Part shown: positions 16,141 through 25,454 of the stretch, piece after piece
How the letters are laid out: every line of letters begins with the position of its first letter
How positions within the stretch are numbered: position 1 is the stretch's first letter
From: a virus
Taxonomy: Duplodnaviria > Caudoviricetes
Length of the DNA: 51,552 bases
IMG/VR virus record: IMGVR_UViG_3300027987_000379
Location: 1 to 51,552 of that record
Strand: one strand, 5' to 3'
The notes under the pieces: model-generated
Seen by the model: the letters and a program-made list of their open reading frames with translations, nothing else
Told to the model about the DNA's origin: nothing
The model's database searches: none
Program-made: the position numbers and the translations under genes

Positions 16141-16536
16141 ATGTCGGATGCTCATAGCAACAAAAATCAGCAAAAGAAGAAACCGGGAAAGAGAAAACCT
16201 ACACCTGCATCCTGGAAACCAGGACAAAGTGGCAACCCGAGCGGCCGAAGAAAAGATGTTGGCCATGTCCAGTTGCTGGCCAGGGAGCACACAGAGTCCG
16301 CCTTGGCTACGCTCGTTGAGGTCATGCAGAATCCCGCAGAGTTGGGCGCTGCGCGTGTTCGCGCGGCGGAAGCTGTCTTAGATCGTGGCTGGGGTCGACC
16401 TCATGCGGCTGTCGAGGTAACTGGTGCGCATGGGGGACCCATCCAGTTTGAGGAGGCCCGAGATGAGCTCTCCAGCATTATTGCTGGCATCGCTGCCCGA
16501 GGACGAGAGGATAGCTTGGTTAAAGAGCCTCACTAG
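16141..16536 (+). CDS. terS: Terminase small subunit (DUF5681-type)
   Basis: WKPGQSGNPSGR; ARVRAAEAVLDRGWGRP; overlaps terL. Confidence 0.85.
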   Translation: MSDAHSNKNQQKKKPGKRKPTPASWKPGQSGNPSGRRKDVGHVQLLAREHTESALATLVEVMQNPAELGAARVRAAEAVLDRGWGRPHAAVEVTGAHGGPIQFEEARDELSSIIAGIAARGREDSLVKEPH

Positions 16537-17794
16537 CGAGCAAGCCGCACAGCTGCGATACAGCTGGGAGTTTTTTGCTAGGCCCTCACAGATGGCTCCT
16601 GATGGAGATTGGACGACATGGCTTATTCTAGCGGGCCGTGGGTTTGGCAAGACTCGTTCAGGGGCGGAGTGGGTTCGCAGCCAAGTGGAATCTGGCGAAG
16701 CGCGACGAGTAGCACTTGTGGCCAGATCTGCCCCTGATACACGTGATGTCATGATCGAAGGGGAAAGTGGCATTTTGGCGATTAGTCCTCCATGGTTCAA
16801 GCCGAAATATGAGCCAAGTAAGCGTCGATTAACATGGCCCAACGGTGCGATTGCGACGACCTATAGCGCAGACGAACCAGCGCTGTTACGTGGTCCTCAG
16901 CATGATGCAGCCTGGTGTGACGAGCTTGCGGCATGGCGCTATGAGGAGGCATGGGATCAGCTTTTACTTGGCTTGCGTCTTGGAACAAAGCCGAAGGTTG
17001 TTATTACGACGACACCAAGACCAACTGAAATTATCAAGAACCTCATCAAGGATAAGGCTACTGTAGTCACGCGTGGCTCTACCTATGAGAACAAATCAAA
17101 TCTTGCTCCTACATTTTTCACTCATGTTGTAGCGAAGTATGAAGGTACGAGACTTGGCAGGCAGGAGCTCAATGCAGAAATATTGTTAGACAACCCTGGC
17201 GCGTTATGGAACCTATCGCAATTGGATGCGCTTAGAATTCGGTATGCTCCGCCTCTTAGGCGTATCGTTGTGTCTGTGGACCCAGCAATGACTAGTACAG
17301 ATGAGTCAGATGAGACCGGGATTATTATCGCCGGAATCGACAGTGAAGATAATGGTTATGTATTGGATGATATCAGTGGTCATTATTCCCCAGATGAATG
17401 GGCTCGTATTGCTGTGACAGCCTATCGCGATTATGCAGCAGATAGGATCATAGGTGAGGTCAATAATGGAGGAGATCTAGTAGAGTTGACCATCAGGACC
17501 GTTGATAAATCTGTAAGTTACAAGGATGTTCGTGCCACTCGTGGAAAATACAGAAGAGCAGAGCCTGTTGCTGCATTATATGAGCAAAAGCGTATTTTTC
17601 ATGTGGGTAGCTTCCCGAAGCTCGAAGACCAAATGTGTAGCTATACTCCTACTTCCAAGCAGTCACCTGACAGGATGGATGCTTTGGTTTGGGCATTCAC
17701 CGATTTGATTTTAGGTAGCCAATCCTTTGCTGTTGAGCCATTTGACACCTCTTCCTTTGTTGCCGGCTTGCGAGATAGCTCCACGCGCCTATAG
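16463..17794 (+). CDS. terL: Terminase large subunit
   Basis: AGRGFGKT Walker A, LRGPQ..AWCDE, VDPA, PDRMDA; RBS GAGGAGG. Confidence 0.97.
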   Translation: MSSPALLLASLPEDERIAWLKSLTSEQAAQLRYSWEFFARPSQMAPDGDWTTWLILAGRGFGKTRSGAEWVRSQVESGEARRVALVARSAPDTRDVMIEGESGILAISPPWFKPKYEPSKRRLTWPNGAIATTYSADEPALLRGPQHDAAWCDELAAWRYEEAWDQLLLGLRLGTKPKVVITTTPRPTEIIKNLIKDKATVVTRGSTYENKSNLAPTFFTHVVAKYEGTRLGRQELNAEILLDNPGALWNLSQLDALRIRYAPPLRRIVVSVDPAMTSTDESDETGIIIAGIDSEDNGYVLDDISGHYSPDEWARIAVTAYRDYAADRIIGEVNNGGDLVELTIRTVDKSVSYKDVRATRGKYRRAEPVAALYEQKRIFHVGSFPKLEDQMCSYTPTSKQSPDRMDALVWAFTDLILGSQSFAVEPFDTSSFVAGLRDSSTRL

Positions 17795-17857: not shown

Positions 17858-19414
17858 ATGCCTGAATTGATGACGTCTATGACCGATGTACCATCTCTGG
17901 ATGTTGCCGGATCGACTGGGCTCAAACATCACGACGGAATGATTGATGAGGAGCATTTGCTTAGACTCCGGGGTCGTAATGCGATCCGGCTGTATCGAGA
18001 GATGATCGATAACAGTCCTGCGATTGGCTCAGCTCTTAATGCAATCAAGATGCTGATACGTCAGGTCAAATGGCGCATTGAGCCGGCGAATGAATCAGAC
18101 GAGGCAAAAATAGAACAGGAGGAAACTGAGACAGCCCTTGAGGACATGAGCCATACGTTTCAGGATTTGATTGGCGAGTCACTTTCGATGATATGGGCCG
18201 GGTTTGCACCATTCGAGATTATTTATAAGTTGCGCAAGGGGCCAGATCAGTCGGATGGGTCTCTGCGTAGCAAATTTAGCGATGGGAAATGGGGGTGGCG
18301 AAAGATTGAAATTAGGGGGCAGGAGACGGTTTCGCGCTGGGTCTTCGATCCTGATGGTGGGATGAACGGCATGGTGCAGATGGATTACCACTCCATCAAA
18401 AGAGGTCCTGTGTTTATCCCTATTGATAAAATGCTCCTGTTTCGTATTGAGAGTTTTAAGGGAAACCCAGAAGGCAAATCCCTCATTAGGCCCGCTGTAA
18501 TCCCGTATTGGTATACAAAGCGCATCCAGGAATTCGAAGCGATTGGTATTGAGAGAAATCTGGCCGGTATGCCTATCATGGAGGTTCCGGCACAAATATT
18601 ACTTTCTAACGCATCTGCGCAGGACAAGTTAATTCGTGCTGCACTGAATAGGTTTGTTACTCAGATAGGGATGGATGAAAGATGGGGGGGCTTAGTTCCT
18701 TCAGAGCTTAGGCCAGACGGGTCTCCTAGCGGATACAAGTTTAAGCTCATGCAGTCTGGCGGAAGCAAGGTGGTCGACACCGATATCATCATCAAGCGAT
18801 ATCGCAGTGAAATGCTCATGTTGTTCATGGCTCAATTCCTCACTATGGGAACGGAAAAGGTTGGTTCATTCTCATTGGCGAGCAATATGACTGATTTGTT
18901 CGGCACTGCCCTTGGCACCATTATGGATAGTATTGCCGATGTAATCAATCAGTTCATGATTCCCAGGCGACAGCGTCTTAATAATAGACCTATTGAGCTA
19001 GATCCGTATATTGTCCATGGTGATATCGAAGGACCTGAGCTTGATAAGCTGGCAACATATATCAATCAACTTTCGAGCTCGGGCATGATTGGACCCAATC
19101 CGGCACTCGAACGCAGGTTGCTAGAGATTGGCAATTTGCCCCAGCCCCCAGAGGAGGAGGCACTGCCTGCCTCTCTCTCTGAAAATGTCGTCGACTCAGT
19201 AAGTAGGACAACGATTTCTTCCGATCAAGTTAGAATGATATTAGATGTCAATCGAGCACTGAAGAACGGAGAGCTCGATAGGCTTGCCGCAATACAGACA
19301 CTCGCTGTCTCTTTGGGAATTGAGACAAAAGATGCCGAGAAGTTCATCCCTTCAAATGTTGCACAAACGCCTGCAGGCACGGAGGAATCTAATGACCATA
19401 GCAACATTCCGTAA
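17858..19414 (+). CDS. Portal protein
   Basis: Follows terL; GNPEGKSLIRP, AIGIERNLAGMP, GSFSLA. Confidence 0.9.
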   Translation: MPELMTSMTDVPSLDVAGSTGLKHHDGMIDEEHLLRLRGRNAIRLYREMIDNSPAIGSALNAIKMLIRQVKWRIEPANESDEAKIEQEETETALEDMSHTFQDLIGESLSMIWAGFAPFEIIYKLRKGPDQSDGSLRSKFSDGKWGWRKIEIRGQETVSRWVFDPDGGMNGMVQMDYHSIKRGPVFIPIDKMLLFRIESFKGNPEGKSLIRPAVIPYWYTKRIQEFEAIGIERNLAGMPIMEVPAQILLSNASAQDKLIRAALNRFVTQIGMDERWGGLVPSELRPDGSPSGYKFKLMQSGGSKVVDTDIIIKRYRSEMLMLFMAQFLTMGTEKVGSFSLASNMTDLFGTALGTIMDSIADVINQFMIPRRQRLNNRPIELDPYIVHGDIEGPELDKLATYINQLSSSGMIGPNPALERRLLEIGNLPQPPEEEALPASLSENVVDSVSRTTISSDQVRMILDVNRALKNGELDRLAAIQTLAVSLGIETKDAEKFIPSNVAQTPAGTEESNDHSNIP

Positions 19415-19565
19415 TTACAAACTCACCGTTTTTTGCAAGGCGTGCGGCAAGGTTATCTTCATCGATGAACGTGGGGGCAAGATGAGTAAGAGTGAATGTC
19501 AATGCGATACCCCGAGTTATGAGGACGGGACGCAGCAAAACGATGACTTCCAAAGCCCCCTATAA
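19392..19565 (+). CDS. Small CxxC zinc-ribbon protein
   Basis: FCKACGK..ECQC; RBS GGAGG. Confidence 0.55.
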   Translation: MTIATFRNYKLTVFCKACGKVIFIDERGGKMSKSECQCDTPSYEDGTQQNDDFQSPL

Positions 19566-19695
19566 GGTATGCTTTTTCTGCAAGAAAAAGATAGATCCTC
19601 TGGCCAAGCATTGGACCAATGTCCCGGTGATTAGCGATGTCGTCGCAAATGTCTGTGCTCGTTGCCATATGCAATGGCTGGATGAAAAATGCTGA
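19543..19695 (+). CDS. Small C4 zinc-finger protein
   Basis: CFFC...CARC. Confidence 0.5.
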   Translation: MTSKAPYKVCFFCKKKIDPLAKHWTNVPVISDVVANVCARCHMQWLDEKC

Positions 19696-19833: not shown

Positions 19834-20787
19834 ATGCCTTTAGTTACAAAAGCGTCCCGTCGCGTACGAAAACCGGCTTGGCAATCAGGACTTAGGGTTC
19901 CCGATAAGGCTCAGAGAGACTCATTGGCGATAGCGGCCAATCATGAACGAAAGTTGTCGGGTGCATTTTACACACTGCTCAGGCAGCTCGTAAGTGATGA
20001 GCTGTTGAAGCAAATATCCATTGCTGCACGAGAGCAGACGGTCACGTTGGCAATGTCGAAGATCCAATTCTTTGACGAGTCCAACCCAGAAACATTTGCT
20101 ATATGGAAACGTTTCGCTGACCGAATTGCCTCTGCATACAGACTCATCATCAATGAAACAATTGAGAACGAGAATCGCAAATATGGCTGGAAATTATCGA
20201 TTGAAAAAGTCGAGAGTCCCACTCTGCCTGTCAATCCTTCGGCCGCTGATTTTATTAGGATCAAGTCATTAAAGGATGCGGTGGGGTTGTCTGAGTCCGA
20301 AAAAAAACGCATCCGGGCAATCCTTACAAAGGGAATGGAAGAGCGCGTAGTCCCTGCATCCATGGTAGACGAGATCAGGGATACCGTTGGGTTAACTGAG
20401 ACTCAGCTGCTAAGAGTGCAAAAAAGAGTTGCTGCTGCTAAGGCGTCCGGGATGAAATCCTCACAGCTTAAAGTTCTGCGTGAGCAGATGTCTGATAAGA
20501 TTAGACTCCAACGTGCTAGAGCCATTGCTAGAACAGAAACAACAGCTGCGATATCGCAGGGATTATCAGAGGCATGGCGGCAAGCCTCTAATAATGGATT
20601 AGCGCCTCCAGAGACAAAGAAACGTTGGGTTGCTGTTCCTGATGCTAGTGAGATTTGCCAGGATCTGGATGGCCAGGAAGTCGGATTAAATGAGAATTTT
20701 TTCAGTAGCGCAGGACAGGGTTTTTCTGGAGACGGCCCCCCCGCGCATCCTAATTGTAGGTCTACGGTTGTGTTGATCTTCCCATGA
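19834..20787 (+). CDS. MuF/SPP1 gp7-like head morphogenesis protein
   Basis: RARAIARTET, KKRW, C..LDG, PPAHPNCRS. Confidence 0.92.
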   Translation: MPLVTKASRRVRKPAWQSGLRVPDKAQRDSLAIAANHERKLSGAFYTLLRQLVSDELLKQISIAAREQTVTLAMSKIQFFDESNPETFAIWKRFADRIASAYRLIINETIENENRKYGWKLSIEKVESPTLPVNPSAADFIRIKSLKDAVGLSESEKKRIRAILTKGMEERVVPASMVDEIRDTVGLTETQLLRVQKRVAAAKASGMKSSQLKVLREQMSDKIRLQRARAIARTETTAAISQGLSEAWRQASNNGLAPPETKKRWVAVPDASEICQDLDGQEVGLNENFFSSAGQGFSGDGPPAHPNCRSTVVLIFP

Positions 20788-20821
20788 TCAATGGGGGGAA
20801 TAAAAGGATTGAAAATTAAAA

Positions 20822-23164
20822 ATGCCCTTGATTGAAACATGCACAATTGACGCATTCCGCCAAAATATTCGGACCGAAATTGATTCAGGCTCAAAGCCAA
20901 ATCAGGCGGTGGCAATAGCAAGACGCGTTCTAGAGGAATCGTGCAAAAAGGAGAATAAGCCCATGCCTATGACAATGGCAAAAGCAAACGGCAAAGGTAA
21001 GAGTCGCGAATATCTCGAAGCGGCATTAGAACAGGTGAGGAAGCTTTTGCCGGGATGGGTTTTCGCTATGATTCATCAAGCAGCATTCCCATCCTCTGGT
21101 GGACGAGCGCGACGGAATCGCCGCATCTCTGCTGCAGAGAAGGTATGGATAGAGAAGCGCTCCGTATCCTCGCTGTCCGACACGGAGGTTAGGGAAATCT
21201 TATATAAGCTCAATGTTGCTTTTGCTGCGAACCTCCGGCAGGGAAAGGATGTTTCTCCGATCGTTCGAAGAACAAAGACCGTAGTATTGGAACTCAAACG
21301 AAGGGGTCTGCCATATAGTGGATCCGCCGTTGATGAAGCGATGAAGAAAGGTTTCATCAGGGCAGAATTGCGGCAGGATTGGACGGAAATCGCCAAGGGA
21401 TTCATTAGCGGCGAACCAGACGGCGGTATGCATGCGCACGGCCTGGACAGGATTAATAGCAAGACGCTTTTAGATGGTGGCCATATTCATATTTTTGTGG
21501 TCCCAGGTTCTGGCGAAATTCTTCTGACGGAAGAGGACGGTGCTCACGCTCATGTTATTGGGCGCGAAGGAGTGAGGACTCCATCGGATGGTGTGCATTC
21601 TCACAGGGTCGTCACGCCTAATGGGAGCTCATTGGAGACGAAACTGGACGGTGCTCATTCTCACGAATTAATGGTTGAGACCTCTGGGTTTGGCGGCCTG
21701 CACAATCATGTCTTGGTACTGAGCGATGGCACTGAGATTGAGTCAATGTCACCTGCTGAATTTATTGCCCGATTCGTTAACCTGCCAACGTTGCCATCAT
21801 TACCCATCTACTCATCAAGAGAGATATCCGATGCGCTCAATCAGAAGCGAGAATTGGAATCCGATATATTCGATCAGAATTCGCTAGCGAGTACAGATGA
21901 GGTTATTGCCGAATTCGCAAAAACAGGTGAGATGCCAGAATTTCCCAATACTCATTGGGAGGTTGTCGAATTGGCAAAGGGGGGAGCATGGTGCACTCTT
22001 CTTGATATGGATGAGCCGATCCTTCTTAAAGATGCAAATAAAATCGGCGTTGACGTTGGCGACATTGTCGAAGTGGACAACTTTGGACAAATCATCAAAT
22101 ATGCGCAATCCTGTGAACCCCATACATTGCAGGATGCAAATGAGATTGCATCCTATAATGCCATCATAGGCGATGCGATAGATTCTGTTTCATTTGTCGG
22201 TCCGCAGGATGCCAAGATTGTATTTGTCTCTGCGAGCCCATGCCCACTAGAATTTGCGCGCAAAGAAGCTCTTGCAGGTCCAGATGGTGAGATATTTCAA
22301 GATAGATATCTCACCCCGCTTGGGTTAACAAAGAGCGATGTTGCGGTTGGGTTCTCGATCCCTGTTCGATGTGAAAACCCGGATGATGAGCAAATTGATT
22401 TATGGAGAGATAGCCTGTTGAAATCATTGGCTCTATATGATCGTGCAAAGGTTGTTGCGCTGGGTCGCGTAGCGAAGCAAGCATTGGGTCCGCTTGCGGA
22501 ATTTTCACTTCCCCATCCAGCCGCCATTCGCCGTCATGGTGATAGAGGTGAGGTGAGTCGTAAACTCAAGTCGATCCGCAAAGTACTTGACAATATGCAA
22601 GGCAACGTTGATTCTGAATCAAGCTACAGCTCTGGACCGAGAGAAGGTCAATCTGCAGCGACCCTCGCTGATACCATAAGTGAGCTGAGAGGTAGCGGAA
22701 GTCTTCGCGTGGCAGTTACGAAGTCGTTACCAGAAAAGCAAATCGTTTATGGTGTTATCCTGGATCCATATCAGGTTGATTTGCATAACGACTGGATACC
22801 TCCCGCTGAGATTGAGGCTACAGCTCATGACTTTATGACTAAGTCACGTGTGATTGGCCTTCGTCATACTGGCAAGGCTCAAGCCGAAGTGGTGGAAAGC
22901 TGGGTTGAGGTATATCCAACAAAAGAAGACAGGGAGCTGGCATTGCAGAACCTTGCGCACAAAGCGTACCGAAGAAAGTTCGGCGATGACCTGGTGCATT
23001 CTGGAGCCTGGATTGCTGGCGTTAAACTCTCAGATGACTTGTGGGAATCGCACAAGCGTGGGGAGCTCGATGCGTTCAGCATCGGCGGATTCAGTTTTAA
23101 GACGAAAGTATCGACCGATGCGATGCCAGAGGTTGAATTCGTCGATTTACAGCCAGCTTCATAA
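20822..23164 (+). CDS. Multidomain protein: His-ladder repeats, UDG-like domain and XkdF-like prohead serine protease
   Basis: Six HxH repeats (~21420-21720); AKIVFV..P..E....AG..G...VVALGRVA..HPA (~22180-22540); QIVYGVILDP..D.HND..H..ESW..W..G..W..GEL.AFSIGG (~22720-23090). Confidence 0.85.
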   Translation: MPLIETCTIDAFRQNIRTEIDSGSKPNQAVAIARRVLEESCKKENKPMPMTMAKANGKGKSREYLEAALEQVRKLLPGWVFAMIHQAAFPSSGGRARRNRRISAAEKVWIEKRSVSSLSDTEVREILYKLNVAFAANLRQGKDVSPIVRRTKTVVLELKRRGLPYSGSAVDEAMKKGFIRAELRQDWTEIAKGFISGEPDGGMHAHGLDRINSKTLLDGGHIHIFVVPGSGEILLTEEDGAHAHVIGREGVRTPSDGVHSHRVVTPNGSSLETKLDGAHSHELMVETSGFGGLHNHVLVLSDGTEIESMSPAEFIARFVNLPTLPSLPIYSSREISDALNQKRELESDIFDQNSLASTDEVIAEFAKTGEMPEFPNTHWEVVELAKGGAWCTLLDMDEPILLKDANKIGVDVGDIVEVDNFGQIIKYAQSCEPHTLQDANEIASYNAIIGDAIDSVSFVGPQDAKIVFVSASPCPLEFARKEALAGPDGEIFQDRYLTPLGLTKSDVAVGFSIPVRCENPDDEQIDLWRDSLLKSLALYDRAKVVALGRVAKQALGPLAEFSLPHPAAIRRHGDRGEVSRKLKSIRKVLDNMQGNVDSESSYSSGPREGQSAATLADTISELRGSGSLRVAVTKSLPEKQIVYGVILDPYQVDLHNDWIPPAEIEATAHDFMTKSRVIGLRHTGKAQAEVVESWVEVYPTKEDRELALQNLAHKAYRRKFGDDLVHSGAWIAGVKLSDDLWESHKRGELDAFSIGGFSFKTKVSTDAMPEVEFVDLQPAS

Positions 23165-23188
23165 TCAAACATTCAATAGGGGGCAATC

Positions 23189-24037
23189 ATGCCCAGTGCT
23201 GTGAACATGCTTACCGCCGTTCAAACGGCAGAGGTGAGCCTTGTGAAGCGTGGTGCGAATAATAAACGTTTCGCATTAACGAAATCGGAGGAAAAGATGC
23301 CATTTAATGAATTGGCCAAGACGGTCTTGGAGGTTGAGGCAGAGGGTGAAAGTAAACTTGTTGAGACATTGAAAGCATCTGGCGTCGCGGATGATGTGAT
23401 CGATGTAGCTGTGGCTAACTTTCGCATTCAGAGCGGATTTAAGGACAAGCTCAGCAAGGACGCATTTGATGTAGTAGCCAAGTCATCCGGCTATGCTACT
23501 GCAGAAAAGAAAGCGGAAGAGAAGGTTATTGAGAAGGCTCATACGCCTATTGAGATGCCTGAGGAGATGCGCAAAGCATTCGATGACCAGCAAGCTGAAC
23601 TGGTTGCTCTTCGCAAGGAAGCTGCGGAAAAAGACGAGCGAATCAAAAAGATTGAAAAGGCAGCAGCCTTAAAAGAGTACATAACCAAATGCGAATCTCA
23701 GTATTCGCATGTCCCTGGCCTGTCCTCGGAAGAGATGGGCGACATGCTGCAAAAGGCTTATGCCATTAGCAGCGATATGGGCCAAAGGCTTGAGAAAACA
23801 TGGGCTGAAACATCGCAGGCACTAAAGAAGTCCAGACTGTTGGCTGCGCAGGGTGTGACGTCCATCAATGATGGAAGTGGAACAGCTTGGGGCAAGATGG
23901 AGACGCTTGCCAAGGAGCTTGTTTTAAAAACGAACGGTCTTTCTAACGGCAAAGCGATGAAGATTGTCATGGAACAAAATCCTGAGCTTTACCAAGAGTA
24001 TCTAAACGAGAATCCTGCCCAGCAGGGTCGTCGATAA
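23189..24037 (+). CDS. Capsid scaffolding-like protein
   Basis: Between protease and capsid; coiled-coil; N-term EVSLVKRGAN. Confidence 0.7.
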   Translation: MPSAVNMLTAVQTAEVSLVKRGANNKRFALTKSEEKMPFNELAKTVLEVEAEGESKLVETLKASGVADDVIDVAVANFRIQSGFKDKLSKDAFDVVAKSSGYATAEKKAEEKVIEKAHTPIEMPEEMRKAFDDQQAELVALRKEAAEKDERIKKIEKAAALKEYITKCESQYSHVPGLSSEEMGDMLQKAYAISSDMGQRLEKTWAETSQALKKSRLLAAQGVTSINDGSGTAWGKMETLAKELVLKTNGLSNGKAMKIVMEQNPELYQEYLNENPAQQGRR

Positions 24038-24058: not shown

Positions 24059-24433
24059 ATGGCATATGAAAATGTTAGTCATACTGTCCCCGGTATTGCT
24101 GCCGGTGCTGATCTGACCGGTTCGCAAAATCGGTTTGTATCTATTGACTCTACTGGTCGTGCTGTATTGACGGGCGCTGGCGCGCGAGTAGACGGTGTTG
24201 TTGGTAATAAACCAAATACTGGAGAGCCTGTATCAATGATTGGATATGGGTCTGTTGCTAAGGTGGAAGCTAGTGCTGCTATTGCGCTTGGTGCCTCCGT
24301 TGCGTCTGCAGCGAACGGGCAGGCGGTCACAGCAACCCTGAATGCATTTATTGCTGGCGTGTGCGTGAGCGCTGCAGGTGCAGCTGGGGAGCTTTGTTCT
24401 GTATACCTCGCATCTCATGGGCAGTCGCCGTAA
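24059..24433 (+). CDS. Capsid decoration/cement protein (DUF2190-like)
   Basis: Small Ala/Gly-rich beta protein directly before the capsid gene. Confidence 0.8.
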   Translation: MAYENVSHTVPGIAAGADLTGSQNRFVSIDSTGRAVLTGAGARVDGVVGNKPNTGEPVSMIGYGSVAKVEASAAIALGASVASAANGQAVTATLNAFIAGVCVSAAGAAGELCSVYLASHGQSP

Positions 24434-24485: not shown

Positions 24486-25454
24486 ATGCCTCAACCAACC
24501 GCATCGGATGTACATGTTAATGCTCCGCTCACAAACGTGAGTGAAGCATTTTTGCAGGACCTGAAAGGGTTTGTGGCCCGCCAGGTATTCCCTGTCGTTC
24601 CTGTGTCTAAGCAGAGCGACAGATATTTTAAATATGATAAAAAACAATGGTTCCGTACGGACGCCAAAGTGCGTGGACCTTCAACTGAATCAGCAGGTTC
24701 CGGGTTCACGATTGATAATACGCCGACATACTTTGCTGATGTCATCGCATTGCATAAGGATATTGACGATCAGATTCGTGCCAATGCAGATTCTGTTATT
24801 AATATGGATAATGATGCAACGGAATTTGTAACCCGCCAATTATTGCTGCAACAAGAGCTTGATTGGGCATCGAAATATTTTACGACTGGTGTATGGACAG
24901 GGTCCACGACTGGATCAGACGTAACACCCGGCGTTCTTTGGGATGTCCCCGCGACGTCTAATCCCATTGAAGACTTACGAGCGCAAATTACGGCGGTAGG
25001 AAAAAATTCAGGATTGGAAGCAAACACCCTAGTTCTTGGTAAAGAAGTTTGGGACGTTCTTGCAGATCATCCTGACTTTCTTGAGCGCATCAAGTTCACC
25101 CAGACCGCCGTTGTGGCTCCAGACCTGCTTGCCGCGGTCTTGGGTATCGATAGGGTTTTGATTGCCAAGGCAATTCAGGACACTGCCCAGGAAGGCGCTG
25201 CGTCAACCCATGCATTTGTACATGGGAAGAATGCCCTGGTAACATATGCTGCTCCACGTCCTAGCCTGATGCAGCCAAGCGGTGGTTACACCTTCGCATG
25301 GACAGGGTTCTTGGGGGCGAATGCTGCTGGGATGCGTATCAAGAGGTTTCGCATGGAGCATTTGTCTTCTGATCGCATCGAAGGCGAAAGTGCATATGAC
25401 CATAAGGTAGTGTCACCTGAAGCTGGTGCGTTCTTGACTGGTGTTATTTCATAA
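24486..25454 (+). CDS. Major capsid protein (lambda gpE-like HK97 fold)
   Basis: VHVNAPLTNVS, FPVVPV.KQSD.Y, L..HPD..ERIK, PSGGYTF. Confidence 0.92.
   Translation: MPQPTASDVHVNAPLTNVSEAFLQDLKGFVARQVFPVVPVSKQSDRYFKYDKKQWFRTDAKVRGPSTESAGSGFTIDNTPTYFADVIALHKDIDDQIRANADSVINMDNDATEFVTRQLLLQQELDWASKYFTTGVWTGSTTGSDVTPGVLWDVPATSNPIEDLRAQITAVGKNSGLEANTLVLGKEVWDVLADHPDFLERIKFTQTAVVAPDLLAAVLGIDRVLIAKAIQDTAQEGAASTHAFVHGKNALVTYAAPRPSLMQPSGGYTFAWTGFLGANAAGMRIKRFRMEHLSSDRIEGESAYDHKVVSPEAGAFLTGVIS

Follow-up and report, generated by a model that had tools for sequence, protein, structure and literature searches.

A candidate polyvalent prohead protease with a twelve-histidine domain and a remodelled uracil-DNA-glycosylase fold in a tailed-phage record

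Proteins packaged into the virion shape the first minutes of infection, and few of them are known beyond the model phages. The closest described kind is the polyvalent phage protein with a C-terminal assemblin-like peptidase (Iyer, Burroughs, Anand, de Souza and Aravind 2017; PMC5512222). Passages of that work describe multi-domain proteins that are encoded among the head genes of portal-terminase phages and end in a head-type peptidase at the extreme C-terminus, with enzyme domains ahead of the peptidase that are predicted to be packaged. Here we describe P0001, a 780-residue protein encoded by a single open reading frame (ORF) in record IMGVR_UViG_3300027987_000379, a viral stretch of 51,552 bases with an estimated completeness of 97% (the window, taken at its full length). 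P0001 has this same architecture, since it joins unrelated domains in one polypeptide, is encoded among virion genes and carries an assemblin-like peptidase at its C-terminus. A preliminary description had read it as a prohead protease bearing a ladder of histidines and a degenerate cargo resembling uracil-DNA glycosylase (UDG). Our results point, with rather more probability than doubt, to a capsid-maturation protease built as a polyvalent head protein, in which a domain of paired histidines (HxH) and an XkdF-type protease form a chassis with a cargo slot between them.

Translation gave one frame, open throughout and with 0 internal stops, and PF14550 (XkdF) was found at residues 632-758, as expected from the earlier placement of the protease at the C-terminal end. 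The same architecture is carried by at least 52 further full-length proteins at 34-66% identity. The design extends well beyond these. An exhaustive phmmer search with the HxH domain yielded 282 clusters at E<=1e-3, of which 160 reach E<=1e-10; the proteins are 161-1877 residues long. Pfam families were counted in 114 of these HxH proteins, wherever in the protein they lay. XkdF was present in 95 of them (63 of 72 and 32 of 42), UDG in 14, D12 adenine methylase in 8, 2',5'-RNA-ligase/2H phosphoesterase in 8, ATP-dependent DNA ligase in 5, MuF in 8 and portal in 9; an intein, a PI3/4-kinase-like domain, a LigD phosphoesterase and a lipase-like domain each occurred as single cases. With our own hidden Markov models (HMMs), both HxH and XkdF were detected in 112 of 145 listed HxH proteins. 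The HxH domain lies upstream of XkdF in all 112, and the spacer between the two forms a continuum from 37 to 1500 residues.

At the short end of this range, proteins of 266-336 residues consist of HxH, a short linker and XkdF, without cargo. Since the HxH domain accompanies XkdF even in these minimal proteins, it is part of the protease chassis; the earlier suggestion that the repeats are loose cargo or a metal store does not hold. At the family level, variable material occupies the slot between HxH and XkdF, where a UDG, a D12 methylase, a 2H phosphoesterase or a DNA ligase may be found. Enzyme domains that vary in the same slot among relatives fit a cargo reading. By these comparisons, the HxH-XkdF design with variable enzyme cargo is widespread and P0001 is one example of it. 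Several giant relatives (P0096, P0137, P0194, P0190 and others, up to 1877 residues) combine HxH and XkdF with an ATP-dependent DNA ligase, portal, MuF, an intein, a PI3/4-kinase-like domain or a LigD 3'-phosphoesterase, and some of them resemble complete sets of head-accessory genes in one polypeptide.

Polyvalent head proteins with a C-terminal head peptidase are, as a general kind, already in print. A chassis with a slot matches this concept, as far as the main text of PMC5512222 sets it out, and sharpens it: unlike the proteins of that main text, those described here share an HxH-XkdF chassis with a defined cargo slot, and the terms UDG, 'DNA glycosylase', HxH, YmaF, XkdF and 'DNA ligase' are absent from it. 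No description of the architecture of P0001 appeared in the titles or abstracts searched. In the literature covered (titles, abstracts and passages), we also found no account of a triplicated 12-His domain with a confident model and no structural relative, of the tight coupling of such a domain to XkdF with a defined cargo slot, or of a remodelled UDG fold as cargo of a head protease.

The protease core carries the assignment to the prohead. Its PF14550 match has an E value of 1.1e-18 (67.8 bits, with the cut-off at 24, and 71.1 bits when the genome was searched), it also matches phrog_3017 and phrog_1530, and several head-protease PHROGs fall on the C-terminus. H682, S753 and S727 are each invariant in 51 of 51 family sequences; a catalytic pair of His and Ser, as in HK97-type proteases, could be formed by H682 with one of the two serines, S753 being a candidate. 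Sequence searches turned up no solved XkdF structure, and a single-sequence search of the PDB gave nothing meaningful. The gene sits in the head module beside the scaffold and capsid genes. P0001 is the only PF14550 match in this 97%-complete record, and no other protease family was found among the head-module proteins scanned with Pfam and PHROGs. As the sole XkdF-type protease found in the record, the fusion must meet the prohead.

A predicted complex points the same way. When residues 596-780 were modelled together with the scaffold-like protein of the next gene, the pair scored 0.71 against 0.00 for the best of 3 controls. Solved complexes attain the mark passed by this pair in 58 of 80 cases and mismatched pairs in 2 of 110; these counts are only rough because our own alignments were used. 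The runs share at least 72% of contacts, with a partner predicted local distance difference test (pLDDT) score of at least 62. In the model, scaffold residues 1-25 contact protease residues 677-682 and 747-765, around H682 and S753, so that the scaffold N-terminus is predicted to sit on the active-site face of the protease. This N-terminus carries the motif L..L...EVSLV.RGAN.K+RF..K, conserved in about 30 of the loci L001-L061, among scaffold homologues that are 26-69% identical overall. The contact can be read as substrate docking or as strand complementation, and each of the two links the protease with the scaffold and hence with the prohead. The earlier view of a prohead protease to which further domains are joined on the N-terminal side is supported.

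Between the cargo and the protease lies a linker in which TLADTISEL..LRVAVTKS (614-635) is conserved in the family, and which is a candidate site for self-cleavage or docking. Homology between the linker (600-645) and the scaffold N-terminus was considered and rejected: hhalign gave a probability of 0.6% (E 0.099), and the likeness is limited to ten residues, RVAVTKSLPE against RFALTKSEEK. Read-through from the protease into the scaffold gene was likewise rejected. The two ORFs share a frame, with GGGGG before the scaffold ATG; two stops intervene (TAA at 23162 and TAG at 23177), and the frame relation differs in some loci compared by hand.

The HxH domain is the most unusual part of the chassis. 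All six motifs are where the preliminary description had placed them, between residues 203 and 296: MHAH 203-206, GHIH 220-223, AHAH 241-244, VHSH 258-261, AHSH 278-281 and LHNH 293-296. All 12 histidines are invariant in 51 sequences and again in 149 sequences, so the pattern is not due to chance. The motifs fall into three homologous repeats of about 38 residues with two HxH each, of the form DG-x-H-x-H ... G-x-H-x-H-x-hydrophobic-x-LPDG, and the repeats align to one another with hhalign probabilities of 97.2-98.5% (E 4e-11 to 2e-15). AlphaFold2 modelled residues 196-315 as a single chain from a 91-row alignment with a pLDDT of 96.7 and a predicted template-modelling score (pTM) of 0.86. Judged from the alignments and this model, what had been called a His ladder is a discrete, folded, triplicated domain.

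Its fold has no close counterpart in the collections searched. Foldseek gave a best E of 0.2 against the PDB and of 0.21 against BFVD, and a wide VIA search, which does not depend on Foldseek, returned no hit with Z >=5. The top VIA rows are small beta barrels, the best being 6gyb_c (Z 4.4, root-mean-square deviation (rmsd) 3.5 Å, 97 aligned residues); an absent match is no proof of a new fold. The HxH stretch of P0001 matches no family in Pfam (E<=1) or PHROGs (E<=0.01), and tblastn against 50,697 phage records returned no match to the domain. YmaF (PF12788), an uncharacterised family of Bacillota, gives a weak Pfam match in 2 of the 114 HxH relatives (E 2.9e-4 and 4.9e-5) and provides two of the three top ESM-Atlas feature matches (0.78 and 0.77). 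P0001 itself has no YmaF match at E<=1 in Pfam, and the papers found to use the name lack it in their titles and abstracts. We regard this distant link as a lead only. A confident model with no structural relative, no PHROG match and only the weak YmaF link makes the domain a good target for structure determination and metal analysis.

Paired histidines of this kind have precedents in phage structural proteins. At the tip of T4 gp37, HxH motifs coordinate seven iron ions (cited from Bartual 2010 in a passage of PMC11705849), and an abstract on P2 gpV describes a central Fe ion, at the apex of that spike. P0001 resembles both in having histidines paired in HxH within a protein of the structural module. 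Given the invariance of the histidines and these known HxH iron sites, the 12 histidines would hold two or three metal ions, as two His6 or three His4 sites. The T4 gp37 and P2 gpV sites are built by three chains, whereas P0001 is one chain with three repeats that is predicted to fold alone, and the three repeats may thus mimic the metal site of a trimeric fibre within one polypeptide. No fibre or spike stood out among the VIA results: 7xy1 and 8x8m, entries for a phage fibre and a tail spike, scored no higher than Z 2.8 against the monomer model.

The slot of P0001 holds a UDG-superfamily fold. Pfam places PF03167 (UDG) at residues 460-575 with 31.8 bits against a cut-off of 24.3, and Foldseek matches the model of the domain to UdgX and family-4 UDGs with an E value of 1.3e-7. 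In VIA, the best comparisons include the family-4 enzyme Tth UDGa (1ui1; Z 18.0, rmsd 2.5 Å, 149 aligned) and UdgX (6ajo_A; Z 16.6, rmsd 1.8 Å, 139 aligned), and the profile of 51 family members aligns to the family-4 UDG of Sulfolobus (4zbx) with E 1e-7. The fold is therefore present over the stretch where it had been proposed, 22180-22540 (residues 454-574). The domain falls far below the family models of NCBIfam, with 21.8 bits against a cut-off of 125.3 for TIGR00758 (family 4) and 15.8 bits against 189.95 for TIGR03914 (UdgX). Taken together, sequence and model place it in the superfamily nearest to family 4 and UdgX, yet in neither.

The profile alignment and the columns of 51 relatives agree with the motif readings made before us. 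GEAPG reads SASPC at 470-474, the Phe of PFVG is replaced by Leu484 and the Asn of the 'TN' motif by Phe511, while E477, VVALG (543-547) and HPA (565-567) are retained. Family-4 UDGs bind a 4Fe-4S cluster through four cysteines; here no Cys column is invariant or at least 90% conserved in the 51-sequence alignment.

The pocket columns were read against the residue roles described for Tth UDGa in passages of Xia et al. 2017 (PMC5387724), where E41, G42, E47, F54, N80 and H155 form the uracil pocket and N89 positions a water. Among the 51 relatives, the E41 column holds A 27, S 12, G 8, T 2, E 1 and P 1; the G42 column S 24, A 19, T 5, E 1, R 1 and L 1; and the F54 column L 37, I 8, V 3, F 2 and M 1. 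At N80, the position of Phe511, the counts are F 47, L 3 and Y 1, and the N89 region is variable (N519 column: D 16, E 6, K 5, S 5, N 4, gap 6). The family-4 motif-1 Glu, stacking Phe and uracil-reading Asn are thus not found. The motif-2 His is: the H155 column (H565 in P0001) is H in 51 of 51, and P566 is likewise kept in 51 of 51. This His-Pro is followed by R570 (50 of 51) and by position 571 with R 35, K 15 and E 1; Gly510 is conserved in 51 of 51. The E47 column is E in 50 of 51.

These columns suggest that canonical uracil recognition is lost. Since the replacement residues are themselves conserved, the pocket appears re-specified and not decaying. The earlier word 'degenerate' is thus misleading for a domain in which Phe511 is kept in 47 and Gly510 in all of the 51 sequences. 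In the UDG cargo of distant relatives (P0064, P0112, P0106 and P0137 among them), motif 1 has intermediate forms (AEQP, AHQP, PQP), with AEQP in P0064 and AHQP in P0112. P0137 also carries a separate N-terminal GDGPG...HPAA unit, which may still be active.

Comparison with described UDGs sets the domain apart in context as well as in residues. With the family-4 enzymes (Tth 1ui0/1ui1 and Sulfolobus 4zbx) it shares the fold, the motif-2 His-Pro and the E47 equivalent; unlike them, it has the Glu of GE[AG]PG and the F54 and N80 equivalents replaced, and no conserved Fe-S cysteines. Other phage UDG domains are fused to family-A DNA polymerases: according to passages of PMC13697223, those of SPO1- and SP15-like phages are active, and those of N4-like phages are inactive with catalytic residues lost. 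The domain of P0001 is like these in being a UDG fold within a larger phage protein (phiLo 9qhs_A; Z 12.9, rmsd 2.6 Å, 131 aligned), and we group poxvirus D4, a polymerase cofactor, with the same comparators. Unlike them, it has as partner a head protease in the structural module, and no polymerase gene was found among the ORFs scanned. A UDG-like cargo would be a third viral context for UDG folds, beside free repair enzymes and polymerase-fused domains. The series of such cargoes, from near-canonical to remodelled pockets, would allow a change of specificity in the superfamily to be studied.

No clear free-standing copy of this UDG subtype was found in a word-based search of shorter proteins, from which distant ones could escape. 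The search returned 3 proteins of about 417 residues, two with XkdF and one with the UDG alone. Against the phage records, tblastn with the UDG part gave one weak match (E 2e-3), in Microcystis phage Mvi-JY20, to the N-terminal UDG-like domain of a family-A DNA polymerase (a PolA-intein protein, L062:4980-8345). This PolA-intein gene adjoins genes for DnaB-like and DEAD-box helicases.

We then propose a model for P0001. The C-terminal XkdF serine-protease core (638-780) would be the working head enzyme, recruited to the assembling prohead by its predicted grip on the scaffold, the product of the following gene, at the conserved N-terminus of that protein. The 637 residues fused ahead of it would enter the prohead with the core. 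Here the slot holds the family-4-like UDG fold, in which uracil recognition is gone and the motif-2 His and the basic residues that follow it are kept; this domain would most likely bind DNA or a flipped non-uracil base and not act as a canonical uracil glycosylase. Once the head has been assembled, we expect cleavage by the protease both of the scaffold and within its own disordered linker (593-637). The N-terminal ~600 residues would thereby be freed in the head and, by analogy with other virion-packaged polyvalent proteins, could exit with the DNA; the alternative fate of the freed part is degradation instead of co-injection. The preliminary interpretation thus stands in its head protease, its UDG fold and its view of fused domains as cargo, and gives way on the loose His cargo or metal store and on the decaying UDG.

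Several points weigh against this model. With our own HMMs, no XkdF is seen in 33 of the 145 HxH proteins; these could be incomplete sequences or have a different architecture. One profile, that of the head-protease family phrog_3017, is matched by the scaffold N-terminus at positions 5-53 and by the protease core at positions 41-158, so the predicted complex may reproduce a fold that is a single chain elsewhere and not reflect an interaction in trans. By our estimate, the capsid of a 51.5-kb genome has limited room for many ~70-kDa cargo copies, which favours degradation after assembly. In addition, loss of the E41, F54 and N80 equivalents could make the UDG domain a mere spacer.

It is tempting to combine the parts into a bolder picture, which we offer tentatively and would not expect to hold in full. 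The 12-His module would be a new fold, its three tandem repeats imitating the three chains of a phage fibre and caging metals through HxH, and it would be the constant part, or handle, of a delivery system with exchangeable modules. By way of their head protease, uncultured phages in their thousands would load interchangeable nucleic-acid enzymes (UDG-like, DNA ligase, 3'-phosphoesterase, 2H phosphoesterase and adenine methylase) and inject them with the genome as a kit for repair and counter-defence, in which the UDG-like cargo would be a reader or excisor of a non-uracil lesion.

An explanation confined to assembly is the strongest competitor of the polyvalent model, and one that we hold to be unlikely. 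In it, the N-terminal 640 residues work within the prohead, either as part of its inner scaffold or core or by restraining the protease until assembly, and are then digested; the UDG fold is exapted to a structural or DNA-independent role, and nothing is delivered to the host. The presence of HxH with XkdF in cargo-free minimal proteins agrees with this, because a domain found there serves the protease or the head rather than the host. The position of the gene directly before that of the scaffold, to which the protease is predicted to bind, the family-wide loss of uracil-pocket residues and the limited space in the capsid all suit it as well. However, the slot of relatives holds bona fide nucleic-acid enzymes (D12 methylase, ATP DNA ligase, 2H phosphoesterase), which would be implausible filler, and in some relatives it holds more canonical UDGs (best E 1.1e-19). 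The pocket of the UDG-like domain is also constrained in a way that argues against a purely structural part, with H565, P566 and G510 at 51/51, F511 at 47/51 and R570 at 50/51.

The UDG-like domain could alternatively be an active glycosylase of new specificity, acting on a base other than uracil (a deaminated, oxidised or modified one, for instance) in the DNA of phage or host, during packaging or soon after injection, and belonging to a kit for repair or counter-defence carried in the virion. We consider this still less probable. Passages of PMC5387724 name the motif-2 His as the costliest loss in Tth UDGa, where H155S lowers k2/Km to 9.4e1 from 2.4e5, and describe families 4, 5 and 6 as active despite having no water-activating Asp/Asn in motif 1. 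That His is kept in 51/51 relatives of P0001 and the E47 equivalent in 50/51, and the cargo of relatives includes the repair enzymes DNA ligase and LigD 3'-phosphoesterase. Against such activity, no conserved water-positioning or base-reading polar residue stands at the E41, N80 and N89 equivalents, with N519 variable, and the family-4 and UdgX models of NCBIfam score far under their cut-offs. Nor does the early region hint at an unusual base: Pfam found no polymerase or base-modification family among the 20 early and other ORFs scanned, many of which have no family at all.

That the fusion is a mis-assembly or an uncorrected frameshift between separate genes is contradicted by many independent homologues and can practically be discounted: the one run with full coverage of the stretch is possibly that from which the record was made, which leaves no independent reads, but the same fusion is seen in 52 other proteins of varied contigs and origins, and the frame is open over every domain border. 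No RNA data set is listed among the sequencing runs that contain the stretch. The Logan contig of that run, X2, shows 0 differences across 20700-23300; as X2 is possibly the source of this DNA, the contig is not independent support. A stop or frameshift between the domains, which would have undone the earlier proposal, was thus not found.

The related loci number 60, of which 56 lie on viral contigs and 4 on contigs of metagenome-assembled genomes (MAGs), and in six of them (L006, L007, L009, L010, L011 and L014) residues 1-778 or 1-780 are matched in one frame. Wherever the flanks reach, the order portal, MuF, P0001 gene, scaffold, (cement), capsid is kept in the 60 loci. The MAG loci L001-L004 are binned to Methylococcaceae, a deltaproteobacterium, Thiohalocapsa and Dehalococcoidales; two of their contigs are 47-49 kb and two 7-17 kb. 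These are probably phage contigs, so the bins are uninformative on the host. Some close relatives (P0037, P0041, P0046 and P0034) have an extra insertion of ~100 residues past the N-terminal domain, after residue ~50 of P0001, and P0050 and P0051 have another insertion with the motif WGGDAG..W.

In the search for cultured relatives, blastn with the head module gave no match against the 50,697 phage records, and no record covers at least 80% of P0001 in tblastn. The protease part was found by tblastn in 163 records, some of them annotated 'DNA methyltransferase/prohead protease', and XkdF relatives in cultured phages include the methylase-protease fusions of Lactococcus ul36-like phages and of Rhizobium RHph_Y1_11. 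Unlike these, P0001 carries an HxH domain with no match in the phage records and a UDG part whose one weak match there is to a polymerase.

Together, these comparisons suggest a recurrent rule, namely that inserts between a 12-His domain and a head protease are carried towards the prohead. It could guide the search for injected effectors in metagenomic sequence, and it offers a possible means of packing foreign proteins into capsids.

Table 1 Features of P0001 and its neighbours in the window (coordinates in bases of the record)
Feature	Coordinates	Strand	Evidence
P0001, polyvalent prohead protease (favoured reading), whole ORF, 780 residues	20822-23164	+	52 full-length relatives; gene order common to 60 loci
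Small helical N-terminal domain, residues 1-45	20822-20956	+	phrog_2423 (no function assigned), E 4.2e-9 over residues 1-35
Helical domain, residues 60-180	20999-21361	+	Motif EYLEAALE..LPGW..IHQAA..SGG; pLDDT ~80-93
12-His domain, residues 196-315, three repeats with two HxH each, predicted metal binding	21407-21766	+	Invariant His; confident model
Helices and small five-strand beta domain, residues 316-434	21767-22123	+	Packs ahead of UDG fold in model
UDG-superfamily fold with remodelled pocket, residues 435-592	22124-22597	+	Pfam, Foldseek, profile alignment, VIA; nearest family 4 and UdgX
Disordered linker, residues 593-637	22598-22732	+	pLDDT <50; conserved TLADTISEL..LRVAVTKS at 614-635
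XkdF-type (Peptidase_S78_2) prohead protease core, residues 638-780	22733-23161	+	H682, S753 invariant; sole PF14550 match in record
Large terminase	16424-17794	+	
Mu-type portal protein	17858-19414	+	PF06074, E 4.4e-37
MuF-like minor head protein, immediate upstream neighbour of P0001	19738-20787	+	PF04233, E 1e-11; synteny
Scaffold-like protein	23189-24037	+	Separate gene; conserved N-terminus, residues 1-25 (23189-23263), 'EVSLVKRGAN'
Cement-like protein	24059-24433	+	
Major capsid protein	24486-25454	+	phrog_1005, E 2.7e-84

The remaining parts of P0001 are simpler (Table 1). The N-terminal NIRTEI..QAVAIA piece, singled out before as a short domain, corresponds to the phrog_2423 match, and the model places helices at 9-21 and 26-43. 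Residues 60-180 are conserved across the family and have no match in Pfam or PHROGs. No Pfam family matches residues 316-434, where the model places the strands of the beta domain at residues 377-427 with pLDDT >90.

PADLOC reported no family. Elsewhere in the window, among the 20 early and other ORFs, Pfam identified YqaJ, RusA, an IstB-like ATPase and terminase. The minus strand at 1292-2389, near the start of the record and distant from the tail genes of the plus strand, encodes a protein with a Pam3_gp18 baseplate-plug domain (E 8.6e-20). A 67-residue ORF at 19492-19695 (+), located between the genes for portal and MuF, has two Cys pairs (CFFC ... CARC) and may encode a small zinc-ribbon protein.

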